A stretch of DNA of 32,000 bases from Paenibacillus sp. (GTDB lineage Bacteria > Bacillota > Bacilli > Paenibacillales > Paenibacillaceae), in assembly GCF_048976745.1 (NCBI RefSeq), contig NZ_JBHGUU010000006.1, positions 1,519,395 through 1,551,394 of the forward strand, read 5' to 3'. Positions 1,816-32,000 of this stretch are shown here, in pieces (within the stretch, counting starts at the first letter, position 1; every line of letters starts with the position of its first letter). The translations under genes and the position numbers were made by a program. The notes beneath the pieces were generated by a model. That model was not told the DNA's origin, ran no database searches, and saw only the letters and a list, made by a program, of their open reading frames with translations.

Positions 1816-2649
1816 TCACCTGCGGCCAGCCAGCATTTTACGTTCTGCATAGACAACAAGTTGATACATGGCTGTTGCAACTGCTGCAATAATTAACAGA
1901 CTTGATAATACAAGTGTAAAGTTGAATACCTGGAATCCGTAGATAATGAGATAACCGAGCCCTTGTTTGGCGACCAGAAACTCACCCACAATTACACCCA
2001 CCCAGGCCATGCCCACGTTCACTTTCAAAGTGGATACAATCGCTGGAAAAGAAGCGGGCAATACAACTTTGGTAAAAATCTCGGAACGTTCTCCACCAAA
2101 CGTACGAATCACTTTAATATAATTGGGATCCACTTCATTGAAGCTGTTATACACCACCAGTGTTGTAATAATGACCGTGATGGACAACGTAGTCATAACA
2201 ATTGCCGTGAAACCCGCGCCAAACATAACAATAAAGATCGGGCCAAGGGCTACCTTTGGCATACTGTTAAACACAACCATATAGGGGTCCAGCACTTTGG
2301 ACAAAAAAGGAGACCACCAAATTAAAACTGCGAGCAAGGTTCCAACGAGTGTTCCCAGCAAAAAACCAACTGCCGTTTCCCCTACGGTTACCCCAACATG
2401 AGCCCATAATTCGCCACTAGCGATGTCCTTGCCGATCTGAGCAAAAATCTTACTTGGATAACTGAATAACAGTACATCAATCCAACGAAGTCTGCCTGCC
2501 ACTTCCCATAACAAGAACATACATACGAGCATAGATAACTGTACGGCAAGCACTTGGTGTCGCCATCTGGCCACTTGCTGAATATGATTCCGATGCAGCT
2601 GTCCCATCCATTCGTCACGCTTTTCCTGCTTCGGATTCGTTTGATTCAC
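1816..2649 (-). CDS. ABC transporter permease (NitT/TauT family, SsuC/TauC-like)
   Basis: 277-aa polytopic membrane ORF. Its GTG start overlaps the upstream ATPase stop (GTGA at 2646-2649), implying translational coupling. It has a BPD-transporter EAA-like region and sits in a binding protein-ATPase-permease operon. Confidence 0.9.
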   Translation of the reverse strand: MNQTNPKQEKRDEWMGQLHRNHIQQVARWRHQVLAVQLSMLVCMFLLWEVAGRLRWIDVLLFSYPSKIFAQIGKDIASGELWAHVGVTVGETAVGFLLGTLVGTLLAVLIWWSPFLSKVLDPYMVVFNSMPKVALGPIFIVMFGAGFTAIVMTTLSITVIITTLVVYNSFNEVDPNYIKVIRTFGGERSEIFTKVVLPASFPAIVSTLKVNVGMAWVGVIVGEFLVAKQGLGYLIIYGFQVFNFTLVLSSLLIIAAVATAMYQLVVYAERKMLAGRR

Positions 2650-3440
2650 GCGTCTTTCTCACCTCCCCCGGGCTGGTCCAGTTCACTCCATAATGCCTGA
2701 AACAGCTCATTGAACCCTTCTTGCTCCCTGGCATGGAAGGGCTGGGCCTTTCGAATTCCATCGGGAATGATAAATTCACGACGGATGCGGCCAGGATTGC
2801 GATCAAGTACAATGACGCGATCACTGACCGCAATGGCCTCAGACAAATCATGGGTGACAAGTACAGAGGTTTTGCCAAACTGTTTTAACGTATCTGAGAC
2901 GAGATCCTCCAATTGCAGCTTGGTTTGATAATCAAGTGCTGAGAAGGGTTCATCCAGCAATAAAATTCCTGGGTCTGTCGCCAGCGTGCGCACCAGGGCT
3001 ACTCGCTGTCTCATACCTCCTGAAAGCTCTGAAGGGTACTGACTCTCCGTTCCGGCCAGCCCCATACTTACCAGCAGTTCCCGTACACGCTCACGGCTCC
3101 GTTCATCCAGTCTGCCTGTCAGTTCAAGACCGATCAATGAATTATCCAGAATGGTCCGCCATGGAAACAGGTAGTCTTGTTGAAGCATATAACCAATCTG
3201 TGCTGAAGGGCCACCAACGAGTTTCCCTTTAACCTTGACCTCTCCTCGAGTGGGTGTGAGCAGCCCGGCGATGATCGACAACAGTGTCGTTTTACCGCAT
3301 CCGCTCGGTCCAACCAGACTGACAAACTCTCCTTTTTGGATCTCCAGACTCAAGTCTTCAATCACCAATGAAGCTTCCCGCTCGCTGACGTATACTTGAG
3401 AGATCCCCTCCAGTCGGATCACACTTTCGGATTCAGGCAT
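2646..3440 (-). CDS. ABC transporter ATP-binding protein (NitT/TauT family)
   Basis: Walker A GPSGCGKTT, signature LSGGMRQRV and Walker B LLLDEPFSALD. Start moved to the ATG at 3440 (MPESESVIRLEG..) because GGAAAGGAAGTG lies 6 nt upstream. The track's longer start would overlap the binding-protein gene. Confidence 0.9.
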   Translation of the reverse strand: MPESESVIRLEGISQVYVSEREASLVIEDLSLEIQKGEFVSLVGPSGCGKTTLLSIIAGLLTPTRGEVKVKGKLVGGPSAQIGYMLQQDYLFPWRTILDNSLIGLELTGRLDERSRERVRELLVSMGLAGTESQYPSELSGGMRQRVALVRTLATDPGILLLDEPFSALDYQTKLQLEDLVSDTLKQFGKTSVLVTHDLSEAIAVSDRVIVLDRNPGRIRREFIIPDGIRKAQPFHAREQEGFNELFQALWSELDQPGGGEKDA

Positions 3441-8798: not shown

Positions 8799-10061
8799 CT
8801 AGGATTGAAGTTTAACCAGACTGTAATTCTTTTTACCTTTACGGATAATGATAAATTTACCGCCAATGGCATGCTCTGCGGACACCGTAAATTCAAGCTC
8901 CGTGATTTTCTCACCATTCATGGAGATTGCACCTTTGGTAACATCCTCACGCGCTTGGCGCTTGGATGGCTCCAGACCCAGATCCACGAGCCAGTCCACG
9001 ATATTTTTGGCTTCGCCGTCCGTCTCAAATGTTGGCATTTCCTTGAAACCCTGCTCGATTTCATCGGCTGTCAGGGAACGGATATCACCACTGAACAGCG
9101 CCGCTGTAATACGCTTAGCCTGTTCGAGCATTTCTTCCCCGTGAACGAATTTTGTCATTTCTTCCGCGAGTGCTTTCTGTGCTTCACGTCTGTGCGGCTC
9201 TGTCTCTACCTTTTCAGCCAAAGCTTCAATTTCTTCTTTGCTCAGGAAGGTAAAGTATTTCAAGTATTTGATCACGTCACGGTCATCTGTATTCGCCCAG
9301 AACTGGTAGAATTCAAATGGTGTCGTTTTGTTCGGATCAAGCCAGATTGCGCCGCCAGCTGTTTTACCAAATTTCGTACCGTCGGATTTGAGCATGAGCG
9401 GAATGGTCAGACCGTACGCCTTCGCTTCAGATCCTTCTTTTTTACGAATCAGATCAAGACCACTCGTGATATTCCCCCATTGATCGGAACCGCCGATTTG
9501 AAGCTGTACATCTTCGTTCTGGAACAGGTGCAGGTAGTCGAGGGATTGAAGGATCTGGTAGGAAAACTCGGTAAACGAGATTCCGCCTTCCAGTCTGCTC
9601 GCAACGACATCCTTAGCCAGCATGGTGTTGAGGTTAAAGTTTTTGCCGTAGTCACGCAAGAATTCAATGACATTGATTTTGTGCGTCCAATCGTAGTTGT
9701 TCACCATGCGAACCTGATTATCACCGTCTGTTACAAACAACTTCTTCATCTGTGCTGTCAGTGCATCCACATTCTCCTGCACTTGCTCCATCGTTTGCAA
9801 AGAACGTTCTGCCTGACGACCACTTGGATCACCAATCGTGCCTGTAGCTCCCCCAATCAGAATGACTGGACGATGTCCTGCCAGTTGAAACCGTTTCAGC
9901 ATCATGAAGGGAATGAGATGTCCGATATGCATGCTATCCCCCGTAGGGTCAACACCGCAGTACAAAGAAACGGACTTCGTTTCAGTCAATTCACGTAATC
10001 CCTCTGCATCCGTCTGCTGGTTAATGGCGTCACGCCACTGTAGTTCATCAATAATATTCAT
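8799..10061 (-). CDS. tyrS: Tyrosine--tRNA ligase
   Basis: 420 aa. HIGH motif (DSMHIGHLIP), KMSKS-type KFGKT, and a C-terminal S4-like domain. A Tyr T-box leader lies upstream. Confidence 0.97.
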   Translation of the reverse strand: MNIIDELQWRDAINQQTDAEGLRELTETKSVSLYCGVDPTGDSMHIGHLIPFMMLKRFQLAGHRPVILIGGATGTIGDPSGRQAERSLQTMEQVQENVDALTAQMKKLFVTDGDNQVRMVNNYDWTHKINVIEFLRDYGKNFNLNTMLAKDVVASRLEGGISFTEFSYQILQSLDYLHLFQNEDVQLQIGGSDQWGNITSGLDLIRKKEGSEAKAYGLTIPLMLKSDGTKFGKTAGGAIWLDPNKTTPFEFYQFWANTDDRDVIKYLKYFTFLSKEEIEALAEKVETEPHRREAQKALAEEMTKFVHGEEMLEQAKRITAALFSGDIRSLTADEIEQGFKEMPTFETDGEAKNIVDWLVDLGLEPSKRQAREDVTKGAISMNGEKITELEFTVSAEHAIGGKFIIIRKGKKNYSLVKLQS

Positions 10062-10148
10062 TCGTATAACCCCTTTTCCATCCTCAAAATTCAGTCATGA
10101 TCTACGTTAAATTACGAATTTACACGCTGGAACGGCTTTTTTGGACAC

Positions 10149-10397
10149 AAAAAAATCGCCTCCTTGTCTTCATTAGACACAGGGACGATTATCATAACCG
10201 TGGTACCACCCAAATTGCATGAACAACACATAACCTTAACACGTTATCCATACCACTTTTGGCAATATATCGTTTGCCCATCCGCTTGGCATTACCCAAG
10301 TACTCCAGAGTGTAATTCGCAGCCCTTGTATGTATCAGGTTCCATCAACCCCTGACTTTCTGTAACAGGGACAAAGCCGCTACTGCGCTCTATCAAC
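10149..10397 (-). promoter_or_regulatory. T-box riboswitch leader (Tyr specifier UAC) with terminator/antiterminator
   Basis: On the minus strand: T-box sequence AAUUUGGGUGGUACCACGG (10216-10198); terminator AUCGUCCCUGUGUCU-loop-AGACAAGGAGGCGAU plus U7 (10189-10149); stem I start GUUGAUAGAGCGCAGUA; specifier context GAAU-UAC-A with UAC at 10314-10312. Confidence 0.9.
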
Positions 10398-10414
10398 GTG
10401 ATTCATGTATTCAA

Positions 10415-21054: not shown

Positions 21055-21687
21055 ATGTACAACGTTACTCGATTTACAGTTGACCCCGATGATCCACACC
21101 AAGACTCTGGCATGTGGATTGGTGGAGAGATGGCATATGTTGCAGACTGGCCGCTCAACCCTGATGGGCAACCTTTATTGCATCTGTTCTCCATCCATTG
21201 CAACACACTTTCACAGCAGGTCCATATCCCTTCTTTACCAGAAGATAAATATATCTCGGTCTTCTCGACCTACTCCGCTTCCGAATACTTTCTGGATCAG
21301 GTAACCTATACGGGGGATGAGCTGGAATGGAACGAGAATATTCTCGCCGGATGCACTTATGTCTCGGTATCTTCGAATCCACTAACTTCCGTATGTCCCG
21401 TTCCACCCATTCCATTAAGCGGCGTACGTTTGATTGAAATGGAGCTTCACGATCAGGAGTTTCCTGCATTTTCATTCTTTTCTCCCACTTTACCGAACAG
21501 TGTGAAAGGAATTGACCATCTGCTAGAGGAATATCAACTGGTGTGTCAGATATATTCCGGGGATTTTCCTGATCCATATCGGGATATATTGGGTCTTTCT
21601 GATGCAAATGGTTATTTATTTTTGCGAAGGGGTCCAGCGTCAGCTCACGCACCATTCGATGGAATTTTCTTTGTGCAGACTGCTTAA
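21055..21687 (+). CDS. DUF1963 (YwqG-like) domain protein
   Basis: 210 aa, SD GAAGGGAG 7 nt upstream. The N-terminal GG......WP....G.PL..L..I block and the C-terminal ..D.NGYLFL..GIFFV resemble YwqG features (GG.P..P....G.P..LL.QI; GD.G...FFI). Preferred over the antisense 186-aa ORF, which has no SD or motifs. Confidence 0.55.
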   Translation: MYNVTRFTVDPDDPHQDSGMWIGGEMAYVADWPLNPDGQPLLHLFSIHCNTLSQQVHIPSLPEDKYISVFSTYSASEYFLDQVTYTGDELEWNENILAGCTYVSVSSNPLTSVCPVPPIPLSGVRLIEMELHDQEFPAFSFFSPTLPNSVKGIDHLLEEYQLVCQIYSGDFPDPYRDILGLSDANGYLFLRRGPASAHAPFDGIFFVQTA

Positions 21688-21732: not shown

Positions 21733-21770
21733 AACGTTTCCTGTCTACTCAGACAGTAAACGTTTTTTTT
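21733..21770 (+). terminator. Rho-independent terminator after the DUF1963-like gene
   Basis: AACGUUUC-CUGUCU-acuc-AGACAG-UAAACGUU followed by UUUUUU. Confidence 0.85.
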
Positions 21771-22026
21771 ATATATGTACGGTTTACAATCCTTGATCCT
21801 TACCAGTGACAACACTGTCAGAGTCATATGAATTGGATCGGATTTAACCTTCTACACGAAATCGTTTTAGAAAAATATATACGACGAGGAATATTTTCAG
21901 TCTTCAAAACTTAACATTATTTTACAATAAAAAGCATGTACATTTGGGCAATTATGGTTTAAGTTATATATGAAATAAACATTAATTACATAATATAAAA
22001 TTTTTATCCAACTAGGAGGCAGACTT

Positions 22027-23235
22027 TTGAAAAGAATATTCGCTCTAAGCTGCGGTTTTTATCTGTTAATCGGCATAACCAGCGTTGTGCTCGGTGCCCT
22101 TCTCCCTGTTTTGTTGTCATATTATGAGCGCGGTTACAGTGATGGCGGATTTTTGTTATTTCTGCAGTTTCTCGGATTTCTTGTCGGTGTACTTGTAGCT
22201 CCTGCCCTGACAGCCCGTATCGGAAGAAAAACCATGCTGACCCTTGCCTTGATCTGTATTGTGGCTGCTTATGCTGTTCTCGGATTTTTGCCGTCTTGGA
22301 CCAGCGTTCTTCTGCTTACCATTCTCATAGGCTTTGGCTCAGGCATTATTGAGCCTTCCGTTGGAGCATTCACGATTGAATTCACTGAGAATCAGAAGGC
22401 AGTCGCCATGTCCAAGCTGGATGTTTTCTTTGCACTTGGAGCACTTCTTATCCCGGCTGTCGCTGCTTTATTTATCTGGATGGATCTATGGCATCTTACT
22501 TTCTATGTCGTATCCGGGTTGTCACTGGTTCTCATGCTCCTGTGGATCACCATGCCCCGTCCAGCCGCACGATATCTGGAACAGGCTGGCGAGAATACAG
22601 TGGCACATGCAGCTGGTAAAACTAGATATTCGAGAAAACAGTTGGGGCTACTAATGATTTTTGTCATCTTCTTTTTCATCTACATGGGACTTGAACTGGG
22701 ACTGATGAACTTCCTGCCCTCCATTCTCGTAGAACGATTGCAGCTTCAGGAATCTGTCGCATCACTGAGTGTCTCCATCCTGTGGATCGCGATGATTATC
22801 GGCCGTCTTTTCTCAGGAAAAATAGCGGAAGCGGTCAATTACATGCCTTTCCTGATCTGGAGTACGATCGGCACGCTTATGTTCGCAGTTGCTATGGTAT
22901 TTGTAACGGGTCAGTGGGCAACGTACGTGCTGATCTTCGGAACCGGTTTGTTCATGTCAGGGCTGTTCTGTATCGCACTCGTCTATGCAAATGTTCTGAT
23001 TCCCGGCATGACCGAACGCACAACCAGTATCCTCATCGCATCGGGTGGTATTGGAGGTGCCGTCTTGCAGTATGTGACTGGATGGAGTATGAGTACCTTG
23101 CCTGTTGTGAATACCATCTGGATTTTGGCCGGATTCTGTCTGATCCTGCTTCTCACATTGATGGTCTCTCATCTATGGACGGTAAAAAATAATGCAGTAC
23201 GTGCTGCTCTCACACAACATAGTAAGCAAATGTAA
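22027..23235 (+). CDS. MFS transporter, GlcP-like (glucose/mannose:H+ symporter, FHS-type)
   Basis: TTG start 7 nt after AGGAGG. 12 TM. Blocks MSKLDVFFALGAL, NFLPSIL, W.AMIIGRL and ILIASGGIGGAVLQYVTGWS parallel B. subtilis GlcP (MSKLEVLFGLGAL, NFLPSIM, FIASASFGGAIISFLIGWS) as recalled. Confidence 0.8.
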   Translation: MKRIFALSCGFYLLIGITSVVLGALLPVLLSYYERGYSDGGFLLFLQFLGFLVGVLVAPALTARIGRKTMLTLALICIVAAYAVLGFLPSWTSVLLLTILIGFGSGIIEPSVGAFTIEFTENQKAVAMSKLDVFFALGALLIPAVAALFIWMDLWHLTFYVVSGLSLVLMLLWITMPRPAARYLEQAGENTVAHAAGKTRYSRKQLGLLMIFVIFFFIYMGLELGLMNFLPSILVERLQLQESVASLSVSILWIAMIIGRLFSGKIAEAVNYMPFLIWSTIGTLMFAVAMVFVTGQWATYVLIFGTGLFMSGLFCIALVYANVLIPGMTERTTSILIASGGIGGAVLQYVTGWSMSTLPVVNTIWILAGFCLILLLTLMVSHLWTVKNNAVRAALTQHSKQM

Positions 23236-23325
23236 ACTTTATTCCTTAAGGGAGGTGATGCCCGCATCATCCGGAATTGTTGAGCTTCGTTCGAGTTAGT
23301 ACACCATAATATTGGAGGAAATCGT

Positions 23326-24564
23326 ATGCAAACTTTGACCAACAACCGCTTCGTAGCCGGAAAAGGGATTAAGTTGATTGACGATTCAGGTGTTGAATAC
23401 CTCGATGGCGTGTCAGGTACGTTTAATCTGTCACTGGGCTATAATCACCCACATGTAGTCAGCAAAATTCAGGAACAAGTCGGCAATCTGACGCATATGT
23501 CTTCCTCCTTCACTGAACCATACGTAAATGAAGTACTTGATCACTTAATCGAATATGCTCCAAACGACATTAATGCCGGATGGATGCGGGATATTACCGG
23601 TTCAACTGCAAACGAATGTGCGACCAAAATTGCACAGAAGTATACTAAATCGACAGACATCATCAGCCTGTATCTATCCCATCATGGGCAGACCCAATTT
23701 GCCACCGGGATTTCAGGGAATGCCTTTAGACGGAAACGGTTCCCTAATTCAGCTGTACCTAACGCTGTTCATGTACCTGCCCCATACTGTTATCGCTGCC
23801 CATTCAAATCCTCAAACGGAGACTGCGGCTATCAATGCGTTGAAGCTATCTCTGATGCAATAGAATATGCAAGTTCCGGCTCAGTCGCCTGCATGATCAT
23901 CGAACCCATTCTTGGGAATGGCGGCAATATTATTCCTCCTGCTGGATATTTCAAACGACTGCGTAAACTGTGTGATGAGTACAACATGCTTCTCATTGCC
24001 GACGAAGTTCAGACCGGCATTGGTCGTACGGGAACCATGTTTGCCAGCGAACTGTTTGATATCCAGCCTGACATGATTACCCTTGCAAAAGGTCTTGGCG
24101 GAATCGGCGTACCTGTGGCTGCAGTATTAATGCAATCCCGATTGGATGTGCTCGAAAAGCACGAACACTCCTTCACCTCTGGAAGCAATCTGATCTCCGT
24201 AACCGCTGCCAAATCCACCCTGGAGGTGGTATCCGAACCCGGATTTCTGGATGCCGTGAAACGCAAAGGTGAAATTCTGGGTGAATTGCTGCATGAATTG
24301 GCTGTGAAATACCCAAGTATCGGGGAAGCTCGTGGCGTCGGGTTAATGTGGGGCTTGGAGATCATAGGTGACGGTAATGAACCGGATACACTAAAAACCA
24401 ATGCCATTGTTGACCGTGCTTTTACAGATGAGCATCTGATCCTGAGAAGTTCAAGATATGGCTTCGGTAACGTGGTTAAGGTCCGGCCTTCCCTTACCAC
24501 AACCGAAGACGAACTGGTAGAGATTGTGGAGCGGCTTGATTCGGTGCTTGCCAGCGTTAATTAA
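23326..24564 (+). CDS. Class-III (omega-type) PLP-dependent aminotransferase
   Basis: 412 aa. DEVQTGIGRTG and PLP-lysine context DMITLAKGLGG. SD GGAGGAAA 5 nt upstream. Confidence 0.9.
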   Translation: MQTLTNNRFVAGKGIKLIDDSGVEYLDGVSGTFNLSLGYNHPHVVSKIQEQVGNLTHMSSSFTEPYVNEVLDHLIEYAPNDINAGWMRDITGSTANECATKIAQKYTKSTDIISLYLSHHGQTQFATGISGNAFRRKRFPNSAVPNAVHVPAPYCYRCPFKSSNGDCGYQCVEAISDAIEYASSGSVACMIIEPILGNGGNIIPPAGYFKRLRKLCDEYNMLLIADEVQTGIGRTGTMFASELFDIQPDMITLAKGLGGIGVPVAAVLMQSRLDVLEKHEHSFTSGSNLISVTAAKSTLEVVSEPGFLDAVKRKGEILGELLHELAVKYPSIGEARGVGLMWGLEIIGDGNEPDTLKTNAIVDRAFTDEHLILRSSRYGFGNVVKVRPSLTTTEDELVEIVERLDSVLASVN

Positions 24565-24688
24565 AACATTTCAATGCAACTGTTCGAAGTGGTCGTTTCG
24601 GTTACGAATCGTTCTTATGATCGCTGTTATCCACGGATTTTCTTGATTTTCCTTTCCCAAGGGAAAATAATTATAAGGAGGTTATATC

Positions 24689-25738
24689 ATGCTTGCATTG
24701 GTATACAAATCAGCCTGGGATGTCGCGCTTGAAGAACGTCCTGTCCCGGAAATCACAAGAGATAATCAGGTGTTGGTTCGGATTCGGGCGACAGGTGTGT
24801 GCGGTACCGATCTCGGTATTGTCAGCGGCAAATATCATGCGGTCCCTTCTGTCATTCTCGGTCATGAGTCCGCAGGGGAAGTCATTGATGTTGGCTCTGC
24901 GGTATCGACATTACAACCGGGTGACCGTGTTGTGATCGATCCTACCTACTATTGTGGACAATGTGACATGTGCAGAACAGGCAGACAAAATCATTGCACA
25001 CATAAATCGGTTACGGAGACGGGTGTAAGTGCTGACGGGACATTTACAGATTATTATGTGACCGAAGATCGCTTTTTGTACAAATTAAAGGATCATGTGA
25101 GCTATGAGGAAGCGACGTTGACGGAACCGCTCAGTTGTATGCTGACGGGAATTAATCAGATCCAACTCCTGCCGAATTTCAGAACGATCATCCTCGGTGC
25201 AGGTCCGATTGGCATTCTGTACAGTTACGCGCTCGCTTCCAAAGGGGTTACTGGCTGTCTGGTCGACATCTCGGAGGAACGCTTGGCGATTGCCGACTCC
25301 ATTGCACCCGATCGCTGGCAGGTTCATTCATCCTTCGAAAATGCAATAGAATCGCTGTCACCTGCAACCCATCAGGTTGATATGATTGTGGATACTACAG
25401 GTGTCGTAGGTACACAAGTACTCTCCCAGCTCGCCAGTGGCGGTTATCTGATGCTGGTAGGTCTAAGAGATGGAAATACGTCCTTTAATCCAAAAGAAGT
25501 CGTGGATCGTAGTCTGAAAATTATTGGCTCCATCGATTCTCTGGGCACATTCGCAACAGCACATTATATGATTGAGCAAGAGATCATTCCGGCTAAAAAA
25601 ATCATTACCCACTCCTTCCCGTTAGAGGATTACGAAGAAGCATTCCGCACACTTGGCTGCGATATCCAGGGGCGCACACTTCAAGCCTCTTCACATGCAA
25701 TCAAAGTTGTACTGCAATCCAGTGGTTCCCGTTTCTAA
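24689..25738 (+). CDS. Zn-dependent medium-chain dehydrogenase (sorbitol/threonine dehydrogenase-like, polyol DH)
   Basis: Catalytic Zn ligands GVCGTD and GHESAGEV. Structural Zn cluster CGQCDMCRTGRQNHC. Rossmann motif ILGAGPIG. SD AAGGAGG 8 nt upstream. Confidence 0.9.
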   Translation: MLALVYKSAWDVALEERPVPEITRDNQVLVRIRATGVCGTDLGIVSGKYHAVPSVILGHESAGEVIDVGSAVSTLQPGDRVVIDPTYYCGQCDMCRTGRQNHCTHKSVTETGVSADGTFTDYYVTEDRFLYKLKDHVSYEEATLTEPLSCMLTGINQIQLLPNFRTIILGAGPIGILYSYALASKGVTGCLVDISEERLAIADSIAPDRWQVHSSFENAIESLSPATHQVDMIVDTTGVVGTQVLSQLASGGYLMLVGLRDGNTSFNPKEVVDRSLKIIGSIDSLGTFATAHYMIEQEIIPAKKIITHSFPLEDYEEAFRTLGCDIQGRTLQASSHAIKVVLQSSGSRF

Positions 25739-25809
25739 AGTGGAAAGCCATCCATGAATGGATTAGATTAGATATATATACTTACACAATCCTGGAGGAG
25801 GAATACAAC

Positions 25810-26547
25810 ATGGTAGCAAACCAAGAATTTGGCGGACTGGGTGCAGCCGATGATAACATCATTCAAGCAGTTATTTTTGATATGGATGGTGTACTGATTG
25901 ACAGCGAACCGATATATTTCGAGATTGAGCGCAGCTCCTTTGCCCATTTTGGTGCAGTGATGACGGATGAAGAACACCACACTTATGTTGGAGTTACACT
26001 GGAGTCCATGTGGCAGCACGTTTTGGACAAACATCAACTGACGGCTACGCTGGAAGAAGTATTGGCATATCATCAGCATAATGTGATGCAAACCATGCTG
26101 GCTCATTCAAACTTGAAGGCAATGCCTTCCGTGGAACGCTGGTTAAGCTGGCTGCATGAGCAACACATTCCCATAGCCGTTGCTTCTTCCTCTCCACGTG
26201 CACTGATTGATTTGATCATGGACAAGACCGGACTTGGGCAATACTTTGAGGTACGAATGACCGGAGAGGAAGTCGAACATGGCAAGCCTGCACCAGATAT
26301 TTTCCTGACCACAGCTGAAATGATTGGTGCATCCCCGTCGAATTGTCTGGTGATCGAGGACTCTCGCAATGGTGTTCAGGCGGCCAAAAGTGCAGGCATG
26401 CGCTGCATCGGCTATAACAATCCGGGTTCAGGCAATCAGGACTTGTCCAAAGCCGATCTTCAGATTTCCAGTTACGATGAGTTATGGACCTTGAAGGATA
26501 AAATGCCTTTTGAAGGCAGATCGCCAAGCCTAGCCAAGCTACGCTGA
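25810..26547 (+). CDS. HAD-IA family sugar-phosphate phosphatase (beta-phosphoglucomutase-like subfamily)
   Basis: Motif I FDMDGVLIDSE, motif II ASSS, motif III GKPAPDIF, motif IV IEDSRNGVQAAKSAGM. SD GGAGGAGG 8 nt upstream. Confidence 0.9.
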   Translation: MVANQEFGGLGAADDNIIQAVIFDMDGVLIDSEPIYFEIERSSFAHFGAVMTDEEHHTYVGVTLESMWQHVLDKHQLTATLEEVLAYHQHNVMQTMLAHSNLKAMPSVERWLSWLHEQHIPIAVASSSPRALIDLIMDKTGLGQYFEVRMTGEEVEHGKPAPDIFLTTAEMIGASPSNCLVIEDSRNGVQAAKSAGMRCIGYNNPGSGNQDLSKADLQISSYDELWTLKDKMPFEGRSPSLAKLR

Positions 26548-26590: not shown

Positions 26591-26645
26591 AAAAAAACAG
26601 CCGGACCCGCTTCAATTCTTTCGAATTGGAGCGGGTCCGGCTTTG
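26591..26645. terminator. Strong bidirectional terminator between the HAD gene and the yjfB-like gene
   Basis: Perfect 13-bp stem AGCCGGACCCGCU / AGCGGGUCCGGCU (26599-26642) with an inner CAAUUC/GAAUUG pairing. A7 upstream and UUUG downstream. Confidence 0.9.
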
Positions 26646-26690: not shown

Positions 26691-26873
26691 CTAAACCGAA
26701 AGATCGAGACTTCCACCCAGATTCGGATGAGGAGCCGGAAGTGACTTTAACATTTCCGTCATTTGCTGACCCTGCTGCTGTGCCATGTCTTTCGACATAG
26801 ACATCACTTTCAAGCTTGCCGACTGCATTACTGAAGCCTGGCTCATCGCCATTGATAATGCTGCAATATCCAT
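26691..26873 (-). CDS. yjfB: YjfB-family putative motility protein
   Basis: Start moved to MDIAALSMAMSQASVMQ.. (SD AAAGGAG 8 nt upstream). The 60-aa product matches the MDIAALSM.MSQ....Q....V.K.A.D...QQG..L..ML...P.HP.LG..ID family pattern. Confidence 0.8.
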   Translation of the reverse strand: MDIAALSMAMSQASVMQSASLKVMSMSKDMAQQQGQQMTEMLKSLPAPHPNLGGSLDLSV

Positions 26874-26918
26874 GCTCTGTACTCCTTTCTCTATCTTACT
26901 TATGGGCGTACTTATTAT

Positions 26919-26950
26919 ATATCGGTCAGTAAGGTTCAATTGTTGAAGAA
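26919..26950 (-). promoter_or_regulatory. Candidate sigmaD-type promoter of the yjfB-like gene
   Basis: On the minus strand, CCGATAT (26925-26919) matches the sigmaD -10 GCCGATAT. The -35 is a poor TAAA match (CAAC/TCAA, about 16 nt upstream). B. subtilis yjfB is a sigmaD-regulon gene, to my knowledge. Confidence 0.4.
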
Positions 26951-27210: not shown

Positions 27211-28071
27211 TTACCCCTCAATCAATCCATACTTCACAAAACTATGATACAATCCATCTTCCTTAACGGTTCCCGTAATATCGTCGGCAATAGCTTTCAG
27301 ACCTGGCTTTGCATTGCCCATCGCAATGCCGACATTACAAAACTCCAGCATCTCGGCATCATTCATGCCATCCCCGATGGCGAATGTATCCTCCTGGGAC
27401 ATGCCCAGATGCTTCAGCAGATCGAAGATTGCAATCGCTTTGTGAATGCCAGGGATCATCAGCTCACCACTTCCTTCACCAAAGATCGGCACCGTGCACT
27501 GAATGACTTCGAATTTGCCTTCGAACTCCTGCTTGATTTGTTCAAACGGGATCACCGAGCTCTCCAAGAAACATACTTTGTTCACGTCATCCTTGTACAG
27601 GTCTGCCTCTCCATACGTCAATCCGGCAATAAACGGATGCGGTTTCAACTCCTTCTTCTCTCGGGCTACCGGATCATTCTCCACATCACCATAAATGCGG
27701 CGTTCCAGGTGAGGTTGAAGATTGCTACTCGCATACAATGCCGAATTGGATTCAAGGTAGAAGTCAATGCCATGTTCATTGAAGAAATCGACCATATGTC
27801 GAACATCTTCCGCTGTGACCCTTTTGTGATATAGCACGTCCTTACCAAACTCCACATAGCCCCCACCTGCACCGATCAGACCGTCAAATCCGACATCCCA
27901 GATCGAATCATAAATCTCCGCCTTGGAGCGACCCGTACATAAATAGAGCAGATGCCCATTCTCTCTGGCCTGTTTACATGCCTTCTGTGCTGACAACGGA
28001 ATATTTCCGTCATCATCTACCAAGGTACCGTCAATATCAATAAAAACAATTTTCTGCTTCATATCTTGCAT
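27211..28071 (-). CDS. Cof-type HAD-IIB family hydrolase (sugar phosphatase)
   Basis: FIDIDGTLVDD (motif I), LCTGRS, and GDGMNDAEML (motif IV). Start ambiguous (ATG at 28086, 28071 or 28062). I chose 28071 because GGGGG lies 8 nt upstream. Confidence 0.85.
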   Translation of the reverse strand: MQDMKQKIVFIDIDGTLVDDDGNIPLSAQKACKQARENGHLLYLCTGRSKAEIYDSIWDVGFDGLIGAGGGYVEFGKDVLYHKRVTAEDVRHMVDFFNEHGIDFYLESNSALYASSNLQPHLERRIYGDVENDPVAREKKELKPHPFIAGLTYGEADLYKDDVNKVCFLESSVIPFEQIKQEFEGKFEVIQCTVPIFGEGSGELMIPGIHKAIAIFDLLKHLGMSQEDTFAIGDGMNDAEMLEFCNVGIAMGNAKPGLKAIADDITGTVKEDGLYHSFVKYGLIEG

Positions 28072-28145
28072 TTGCCTAGCCCCCATTATGTATGTTGTCT
28101 ATGTCTAACCGAGCGAGTGCCGAGAGGCATTTTCCTTATACCAAA

Positions 28146-31318: not shown

Positions 31319-32000
<682 letters not shown>

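Follow-up and report, generated by a model that had tools for sequence, protein, structure and literature searches.

The 32,000-nucleotide stretch of Paenibacillus sp. DNA analyzed here (the window; positions 1,519,395 to 1,551,394 of contig NZ_JBHGUU010000006.1) carries four co-directional genes for a transporter, an aminotransferase, a dehydrogenase, and a phosphatase. We interpret them, with a probability of about 85%, as a Paenibacillus-type cassette for azasugar (iminosugar) biosynthesis, glcP1-gabT1-gutB1-HAD, orthologous to the cluster of Paenibacillus polymyxa. The latter species has been reported as a producer of 1-deoxynojirimycin (DNJ) (PMC8382821, PMC10904899), the strain being DSM 365. 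Its cluster agrees with that of the window in gene content, order, and strand, and the window proteins are 67% (transporter), 81 to 82% (aminotransferase), 87% (dehydrogenase), and 73% (phosphatase) identical to their P. polymyxa counterparts, the aminotransferase value for the locus L050 (among the loci compared below) being 82%. The two clusters also have in common the length of a loop in the aminotransferase, Asp283 of the dehydrogenase, and a HAD_2-type phosphatase. A preliminary description of this DNA, made from the letters alone, had proposed azasugar-type enzyme logic for the aminotransferase, phosphatase, and Zn-dependent dehydrogenase; the identities of 81% and 87% to the P. polymyxa enzymes and the conservation of the four genes together uphold that proposal.

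The four genes and their products

The cassette begins with the MFS_1 transporter gene, glcP1-type, at 22027-23235 (+; 402 amino acids, TTG start), followed by genes for a GabT1-type class III pyridoxal phosphate (PLP) aminotransferase at 23326-24564 (+; 412 amino acids, ATG start), a GutB1-type Zn-dependent medium-chain dehydrogenase/reductase (MDR) at 24689-25738 (+; 349 amino acids, ATG start), and a HAD-IA phosphatase (HAD_2, beta-phosphoglucomutase/HxpB-like) at 25810-26547 (+; 245 amino acids, ATG start). The genes are separated by 90, 124, and 71 nucleotides, and each has its own Shine-Dalgarno site: AGGAGG for the TTG at 22027, GGAGGA for the ATG at 23326, AAGGAGG for the ATG at 24689, and GGAGGAGG for the ATG at 25810. 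The positions of the open reading frames (ORFs) thus agree with what had been described earlier in coordinates, gaps, and translation signals, and the domain types assigned to the four proteins match the Pfam results, namely MFS_1 (E value in the 1e-35 range), Aminotran_3 (5e-80), ADH_N with Glu_dehyd_C and ADH_zinc_N, and HAD_2 (9e-36).

The aminotransferase aligns without gaps over all 412 residues with GabT1 of P. polymyxa SC2 (ADO56555.1), at 81% identity, and a cluster look-up placed this accession together with the P. polymyxa aminotransferase. According to PMC8466323, ADO56555.1 is the SC2 GabT1 orthologue studied by Arciola & Horenstein in 2018; the specific activity of SC2 GabT1 has been measured (PMC10904899). 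The PLP lysine K255 and D226 are present, and residues 130-158 form the signature SGNAFRRKRFPNSAVPNAVHVPAPYCYRC. Beal & Horenstein (2021) gave the consensus for this family as SGNxFRxxxFPNxxxxxxxLxVPxPYCxRC (PMC8382821). The loop of the window protein reads SGNAFRRKRFPN-SAVPNA-V-H-VP-A-PYC-Y-RC, with six, not seven, residues after FPN and with V for L, and the same shorter six-residue loop occurs in the characterized SC2 GabT1. The characterized enzyme also fails the literal string, which we replaced with the relaxed pattern SGNxFR...PYCxRC. Of the 120 homologues closest to the window aminotransferase, 118 have this pattern, and the window protein itself has it in the form SGNxFRR...VPxPYCxRC.

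The dehydrogenase is 87% identical, again without gaps, to P. polymyxa proteins that NCBI names GutB1 (2-amino-2-deoxy-D-mannitol dehydrogenase). Its catalytic residues (C38, H59, E60, and E146) and structural Zn ligands (C89, C92, C95, and C103) are present, and the cofactor site, with GAGPIG at 170-175 and D193, is of the NAD+ type. Asp283, which Wu, Arciola, and Horenstein reportedly tied in 2014 to the amino-polyol preference of P. polymyxa GutB1, is kept within IGSID283S. P. polymyxa GutB1 together with NAD+ has been used for the conversion of 2-amino-2-deoxy-mannitol to mannojirimycin (PMC10904899).

Both enzymes score far below the models of housekeeping families in NCBIfam. The aminotransferase reaches 244 against a cut-off of 410 for argD, 207 against 507 for GABA transaminase, 224 against 402 for dat, and 225 against 405 for bioA; the dehydrogenase reaches 158 against 380 and 147 against 458 for two Tdh models, 168 against 450 for IolM, 119 against 550 for GatD, and 115 against 469 for IdnD. 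The earlier description had named placement in such families as what would count against it, and the outcome favors its reading, as these scores stand beside orthology to P. polymyxa GabT1 and GutB1. In the combined NCBIfam (release 20) and Pfam scan, all four proteins stayed below the cut-offs of the curated equivalogs and models for GabT1 or GutB1 were not returned, so that family placement rests on orthology and the literature. A PDB sequence search returned generic relatives only (racemases, GABA aminotransferases, sorbitol dehydrogenase, and beta-phosphoglucomutase-like HAD proteins), with no solved GabT1 or GutB1 among them. The exact window proteins are present at NCBI (WP_421890686.1, WP_421890689.1, and WP_421890692.1), where they derive from a Paenibacillus sp. 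metagenome-assembled genome and bear generic names: "aspartate aminotransferase family protein," "zinc-binding dehydrogenase," and "HAD family hydrolase." There is thus an annotation gap, in that the window dehydrogenase carries a generic name at NCBI whereas its 87%-identical P. polymyxa counterpart is named GutB1.

The phosphatase matches HAD_2 (PF13419) at 124 bits and falls just short of TIGR02009 (153.2 against a cut-off of 153.35) and well short of HxpB (126 against 191). Its HAD motifs are present (D24xD26, S126, K159, and E183-D184). No match to the inositol monophosphatase (IMPase) family PF00459 was found among the proteins scanned in the 20- to 28-kb region. We predict that the HAD protein is a 2-amino-2-deoxy-mannitol-6-phosphate phosphatase and the nonorthologous counterpart of YktC1, its substrate being assigned from context. 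The transporter matches MFS_1 at 121 bits and lies below all NCBIfam equivalog cut-offs. The corresponding gene is called glcP1 in P. polymyxa and Bacillus (PMC8466323, PMC8382821) and adjoins gabT1 in P. polymyxa SC2 (PMC8466323). The protein is probably an iminosugar exporter, and it is the direction of transport that makes this assignment conditional. Two further elements of the preliminary description, a HAD protein in place of the IMPase-type YktC1 and a GlcP-like MFS gene 5' of the enzymes, are borne out by the domains and the gene order.

Predicted pathway

Four steps can be proposed for the cassette. The GabT1-type aminotransferase would aminate C2 of fructose-6-phosphate to give 2-amino-2-deoxy-D-mannitol-6-phosphate, from which the HAD-IA phosphatase would remove the 6-phosphate to leave aminomannitol. 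The Zn- and NAD+-dependent GutB1 would then oxidize the freed C6 hydroxyl, and the resulting 6-oxo-aminopolyol would cyclize spontaneously, joining the nitrogen on C2 to C6, to form mannojirimycin, which the MFS protein would export. The aminotransferase and dehydrogenase steps are modeled on the biochemistry reported in the literature for the P. polymyxa orthologues, and they would hold in this strain by analogy; for the window strain, we infer what the HAD protein acts on, which way the MFS protein transports, where the promoter lies, and which product is finally made. The epimerization and the dehydration/reduction that lead on to nojirimycin and DNJ are not encoded in the window, and genes for these late steps have been assigned in none of the producers studied (PMC8382821).

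Relation to published azasugar clusters

Beal & Horenstein (2021) defined an azasugar "three gene cluster" (3GC) as a PF00202 aminotransferase, a Zn-MDR protein (PF08240/PF00107/PF16912), and a phosphatase within three ORFs on either side (PMC8382821). The interval 23326-26547 of the window holds exactly such a set, as adjacent, co-directional ORFs with those Pfam families. In Bacillus, the clusters run aminotransferase-phosphatase-dehydrogenase with a phosphatase of the inositol monophosphatase family, and in Paenibacillus and Chitinophaga they run aminotransferase-dehydrogenase-phosphatase with a HAD-superfamily (PF13419/PF12710) phosphatase (PMC8382821). The window, with the latter order and a PF13419 phosphatase, is of the Paenibacillus/Chitinophaga type. 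An MFS transporter commonly, though not always, accompanies 3GCs (PMC8382821), and the window has its MFS_1 gene directly 5' of the aminotransferase gene. The aminotransferase also lies above the GabT1 cluster threshold of at least 40% identity in each comparison made (81% to SC2, 47.5% to the Bacillus type, and 57 to 60% to Chitinophaga).

The published survey counted 135 Paenibacillus matches (PMC8382821), and its Table S1 of putative producers includes P. amylolyticus, P. xylanexedens, P. pabuli, P. lautus, and P. taichungensis (PMC8382821). Gene order, HAD phosphatase, MFS association, and species-group membership are therefore already published. The preliminary description had treated the order and the HAD phosphatase as a new variant, which they are not, as both are a published hallmark of the Paenibacillus/Chitinophaga subtype (PMC8382821). 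Replacement of YktC1 by a HAD protein was shown by heterologous expression of Chitinophaga pinensis genes, which yielded DAB-1 (Nunez & Horenstein 2019, as related in PMC9092360). According to Beal & Horenstein, sequence networks cannot yet predict the azasugar product (PMC8382821). Table S1 also lists two 3GCs per genome for several strains of the P. amylolyticus/xylanexedens/taichungensis/pabuli group (PMC8382821). One 3GC type was recovered here; a paralogous-looking cassette, with a DUF1349 gene and with 74% identity in the aminotransferase and 75% in the dehydrogenase, lies in another Paenibacillus assembly (L058).

Compared with the named systems, the window stands closest to P. polymyxa. 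In our comparison the Bacillus type was represented by the B. pseudomycoides pBTZ_1 cluster (MFS | aminotransferase-IMPase-dehydrogenase) and the published table, and Chitinophaga was represented by homologues from Chitinophaga spp. The DNJ operon glcP1-gabT1-yktc1-gutB1 of Bacillus velezensis, B. amyloliquefaciens, and B. subtilis has the same three-step chemistry and a homologous MFS protein, whereas its PF00459 phosphatase gene lies between those for the aminotransferase and the dehydrogenase and the HAD_2 gene of the window comes last. Measured against pBTZ_1, identity is 47.5% for the aminotransferase, 32% for the dehydrogenase, and 37% for the MFS protein, in agreement with the 48% and 32% given in the literature for P. 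polymyxa compared with B. velezensis (PMC8382821). The Bacillus-type operon gabT1-yktc1-gutB1 was considered for the window and rejected, given the terminal position of the HAD_2 phosphatase and the lack of PF00459. The DAB-1 cluster of C. pinensis has the same order and the same principle of HAD for YktC1, and its three genes yielded an azasugar when expressed (PMC9092360). Its product is a C5 pyrrolidine proposed to arise from xylulose-5-phosphate, whereas a C6 route is predicted for the window; its phosphatase is reported as PF12710 (PMC8382821) and that of the window is PF13419; and the MFS gene lies 3' of the enzyme genes in Chitinophaga but 5' in the window. The Chitinophaga proteins are 57 to 60% (aminotransferase) and 43 to 46% (dehydrogenase) identical to those of the window.

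Conservation of the cassette

A genome scan with the window aminotransferase retrieved 46 Paenibacillus loci, against all of which twelve window proteins were compared by tblastn. Every one of them (46/46) has the MFS, aminotransferase, dehydrogenase, and HAD genes, with order and strand unchanged, which answers the earlier suggestion that gene neighborhoods across Paenibacillus be compared. The closest loci, at 97 to 98% identity, are from P. amylolyticus, P. xylanexedens, and other Paenibacillus strains, and the window belongs to the Paenibacillus amylolyticus group. The flanking genes (AraC, EamA, RluF, a 210-amino-acid orphan, YjfB, Cof-HAD, GNAT, and S8 protease) are conserved in the P. 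amylolyticus/pabuli/taichungensis clade only; by tblastn, they are absent from the P. polymyxa-group, P. humicus, P. zeisoli, P. hunanensis, and other distant loci. As the four genes are kept while their flanks change, they behave as one unit found in different genomic contexts, and their arrangement is not due to chance.

Related neighborhoods extend beyond the genus. Chitinophaga filiformis has aminotransferase-dehydrogenase-HAD_2-MFS, an Erwinia tracheiphila plasmid has aminotransferase-dehydrogenase-HAD-MFS-DUF1349, and B. cereus has DUF1349-MFS-aminotransferase-dehydrogenase-HAD. In another Paenibacillus, DUF1349 stands beside MFS-aminotransferase-dehydrogenase-HAD. Myxococcus has a HAD gene beside aminotransferase-dehydrogenase with a sugar kinase and an epimerase, and a Streptomyces plasmid has epimerase-aminotransferase-dehydrogenase-glycosyltransferase-DUF1349-MATE.

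Alternative explanations

Three observations weigh against assigning the cassette to the DNJ-type pathway of P. polymyxa. The window lacks both the DUF1349 gene and the additional neighbors of the eight-gene cluster proposed for P. polymyxa, so the end product could differ or the pathway could stop at an intermediate. The published aminotransferase consensus, taken literally, matches neither the window protein nor any of its 120 closest homologues. A scan for the sigma-70/sigma-A consensus gave no clear promoter in the cassette leader.

The same enzyme logic might act on a different substrate. Amination of a pentulose-5-phosphate (xylulose-5-phosphate) would lead to a pyrrolidine such as DAB-1 or to another azasugar that is not DNJ, a proposal that agrees with the gene order and HAD phosphatase common to the Chitinophaga type (PMC8382821, PMC9092360, and the C. 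filiformis locus) and with the fact that sequence networks are not yet predictive of product (PMC8382821); the two 3GCs of some strains of the clade (Table S1) also leave room for product diversity. The identities of 81% and 87% to the hexose enzymes of P. polymyxa, a reported DNJ producer, against 57 to 60% and 43 to 46% to the Chitinophaga enzymes nevertheless make this substrate improbable. The same comparison disfavors the earlier suggestion of a possibly different product, as the window enzymes are far closer to the fructose-6-phosphate and aminomannitol enzymes of P. polymyxa. The genes might instead form a catabolic or salvage operon in which the MFS protein imports an amino-polyol or amino sugar that is then oxidized and deaminated for growth. 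Reactions of transaminases and polyol dehydrogenases can run both ways, the first gene encodes a transporter, and an AraC-family regulator is encoded 3 kb upstream; but such a route would call for a kinase and would leave a dedicated sugar-phosphate phosphatase without a function, the orthologues have been characterized in the biosynthetic direction (PMC10904899), and AraC and the other flanking genes are not conserved with the cassette outside the closest clade. The catabolic role that the preliminary description had kept in view thus finds no support, and we regard it as very unlikely.

It could also be supposed that housekeeping enzymes (ArgD/GabT/EctB-like, threonine or sorbitol dehydrogenase, and a generic phosphatase) came to lie side by side by chance, as might be read from the generic public names of the proteins and from their best PDB relatives, which are racemases, GABA aminotransferases, and sorbitol dehydrogenases. 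The equivalog scores (244/410 for ArgD, 207/507 for GabT, and 147 to 158 against 380 to 458 for Tdh) speak against this, as does the fact that the four genes stay together in different phyla and with different neighbors. A kanosamine-type pathway like that of NtdABC, to which a parallel had also been drawn, is unsupported. In that pathway, the aminotransferase NtdA is of the DegT/DnrJ/EryC1 type and NtdC belongs to the Gfo/Idh/MocA oxidoreductases. The protein families of the cassette are the wrong ones for this: it has no PF01041 or PF01408, its aminotransferase being PF00202 and its dehydrogenase a Zn-MDR protein. Cut-offs, co-conservation, and orthologue identities together essentially refute both chance adjacency and a kanosamine-type pathway. 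Biosynthesis of an iminosugar by the P. polymyxa-type route stands as our preferred explanation.

Flanking hairpins, leader, and spacers

The cassette had been described as flanked by terminators, and hairpins at both sites fold well below shuffled sequence. A simple terminator scan listed neither of them. Upstream, the Rho-independent terminator of the preceding gene (21733-21776, +) consists of a hairpin at 21733-21768 (-16.6 kcal/mol, z -4.8) and a T8 tail, and it insulates the cassette from transcription of the gene at 21055-21687. Downstream, a perfect 20-bp GC-rich hairpin at 26599-26642 (-39.7 kcal/mol, z -8.8) has, on the + strand, A7 5' of the stem and only TTTGCTTG 3' of it. With the A run before it and a weak T run after it, the hairpin would work in both directions and would better suit the convergent yjfB-like gene (26691-26939, -), with which it is probably shared as a bidirectional terminator. 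None of the three internal spacers folded better than shuffled sequence, and the lack of stable folds between the genes fits a single operon.

The AT-rich region noted earlier in front of the cassette is real, GC content being 28% at 21750-21999 compared to about 46% in the cassette genes. Within it, a conserved leader block of about 120 nucleotides (21905-22026, +) is nearly invariant in eight strains of the P. amylolyticus/pabuli/silvae clade, and the sequence further 5' diverges completely. The block contains a -35-like ATGTAC at 21936-21941 and a TG-extended, -10-like TTTAAG at 21958-21963 (TATAAG in relatives), and from this phylogenetic footprint we propose it as a candidate promoter. 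The leader also holds palindromic TGTACA and TTTTACAATAAAA elements, which are possible operator sites. An Rfam scan found no riboswitch or leader RNA at the cassette; its single hit in the window was the T-box described below.

The aminotransferase-dehydrogenase spacer (24565-24688, +) varies strongly in length even among close relatives, from 35 nucleotides in P. polymyxa (L050, 7240-7273) and P. vandeheii to about 100 in P. lautus, 124 in the window, and 275 in P. amylolyticus NBRC 15957 (L001, 7240-7514). In the window it holds the dehydrogenase Shine-Dalgarno site and, from the consensus scan, a promoter-like TTGATT-17-AATAAT at 24643-24671, from which the dehydrogenase and HAD genes might have a promoter of their own in this lineage. 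The idea that the spacer is a mobile or dispersed repeat was rejected, as it is present in a single copy per locus.

DUF1349 and significance

In P. polymyxa, DUF1349 and GNAT genes lie 3' of the cassette and uxuA, mannitol-dehydrogenase-family, and SDR genes lie 5' of it; none of these is in the window. A gene for DUF1349 (PF07081, GH43_C2-like) adjoins the cassette in Paenibacillus, B. cereus, Streptomyces, and Erwinia. Among the loci compared, it was placed at 9528-10139 (-) in L050, 9171-9749 (+) in L053, 8488-9045 (+) in L052, 2942-3601 (+) in L057, and 2611-3261 (-) in L058, and it was also found in L026, L030-32, L034-36, L038-42, and L044. It is absent from every P. amylolyticus/pabuli-clade locus examined. 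Beal & Horenstein placed PF07081 among the "HAD-like" phosphatase Pfams (PMC8382821), which looks like a misassignment, and our literature search on DUF1349 found nothing tying it to azasugars. In the P. amylolyticus/pabuli/taichungensis clade the cassette would have lost DUF1349, and some strains of the clade are listed with two 3GCs. It is conceivable, though doubtful, that this copy ends at a different iminosugar than the DNJ of P. polymyxa, for instance by stopping at mannojirimycin or nojirimycin or by yielding another stereoisomer, and that DUF1349 has one of the roles long missing from azasugar pathways, in tailoring or in self-protection.

Iminosugars, DNJ among them, inhibit glycosidases and find use in drugs and food supplements. 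That strains of the P. amylolyticus group, which are often found in soil and raw milk, carry the cassette is useful to know when strains are screened or enzymes sought. A Paenibacillus GutB1 is already the preferred dehydrogenase in an in vitro cascade (PMC10904899), and the 87%-identical window variant is a ready alternative. The scientific addition is small, as architecture, HAD replacement, and species-group membership are in print; which end product is made, how specific the phosphatase is, how the late steps proceed, and what DUF1349 signifies are gaps of the whole field and not features specific to the window.

Other genes in the window

The ORF at 21055-21687 (+), which has its own terminator, encodes the 210-amino-acid orphan mentioned above. 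It has no Pfam or NCBIfam match, and its homologues occur only in the closest relatives (73 to 93% identity; L001-L011, L015, L018, and L045). A Cof-type HAD-IIB phosphatase gene (27211-28086, -) lies 0.7 kb 3' of the cassette in the opposite orientation, and part of a GH1 glycosidase gene (31319-31984, -) is found close to the end of the window. As these two are conserved in the clade only and are unlinked to the cassette elsewhere, they are probably unrelated to it. A T-box leader (Rfam RF00230, 111 bits) at 10178-10405 (-), 5' of the tyrosyl-tRNA synthetase gene at 8799-10061 (-), is an ordinary one.

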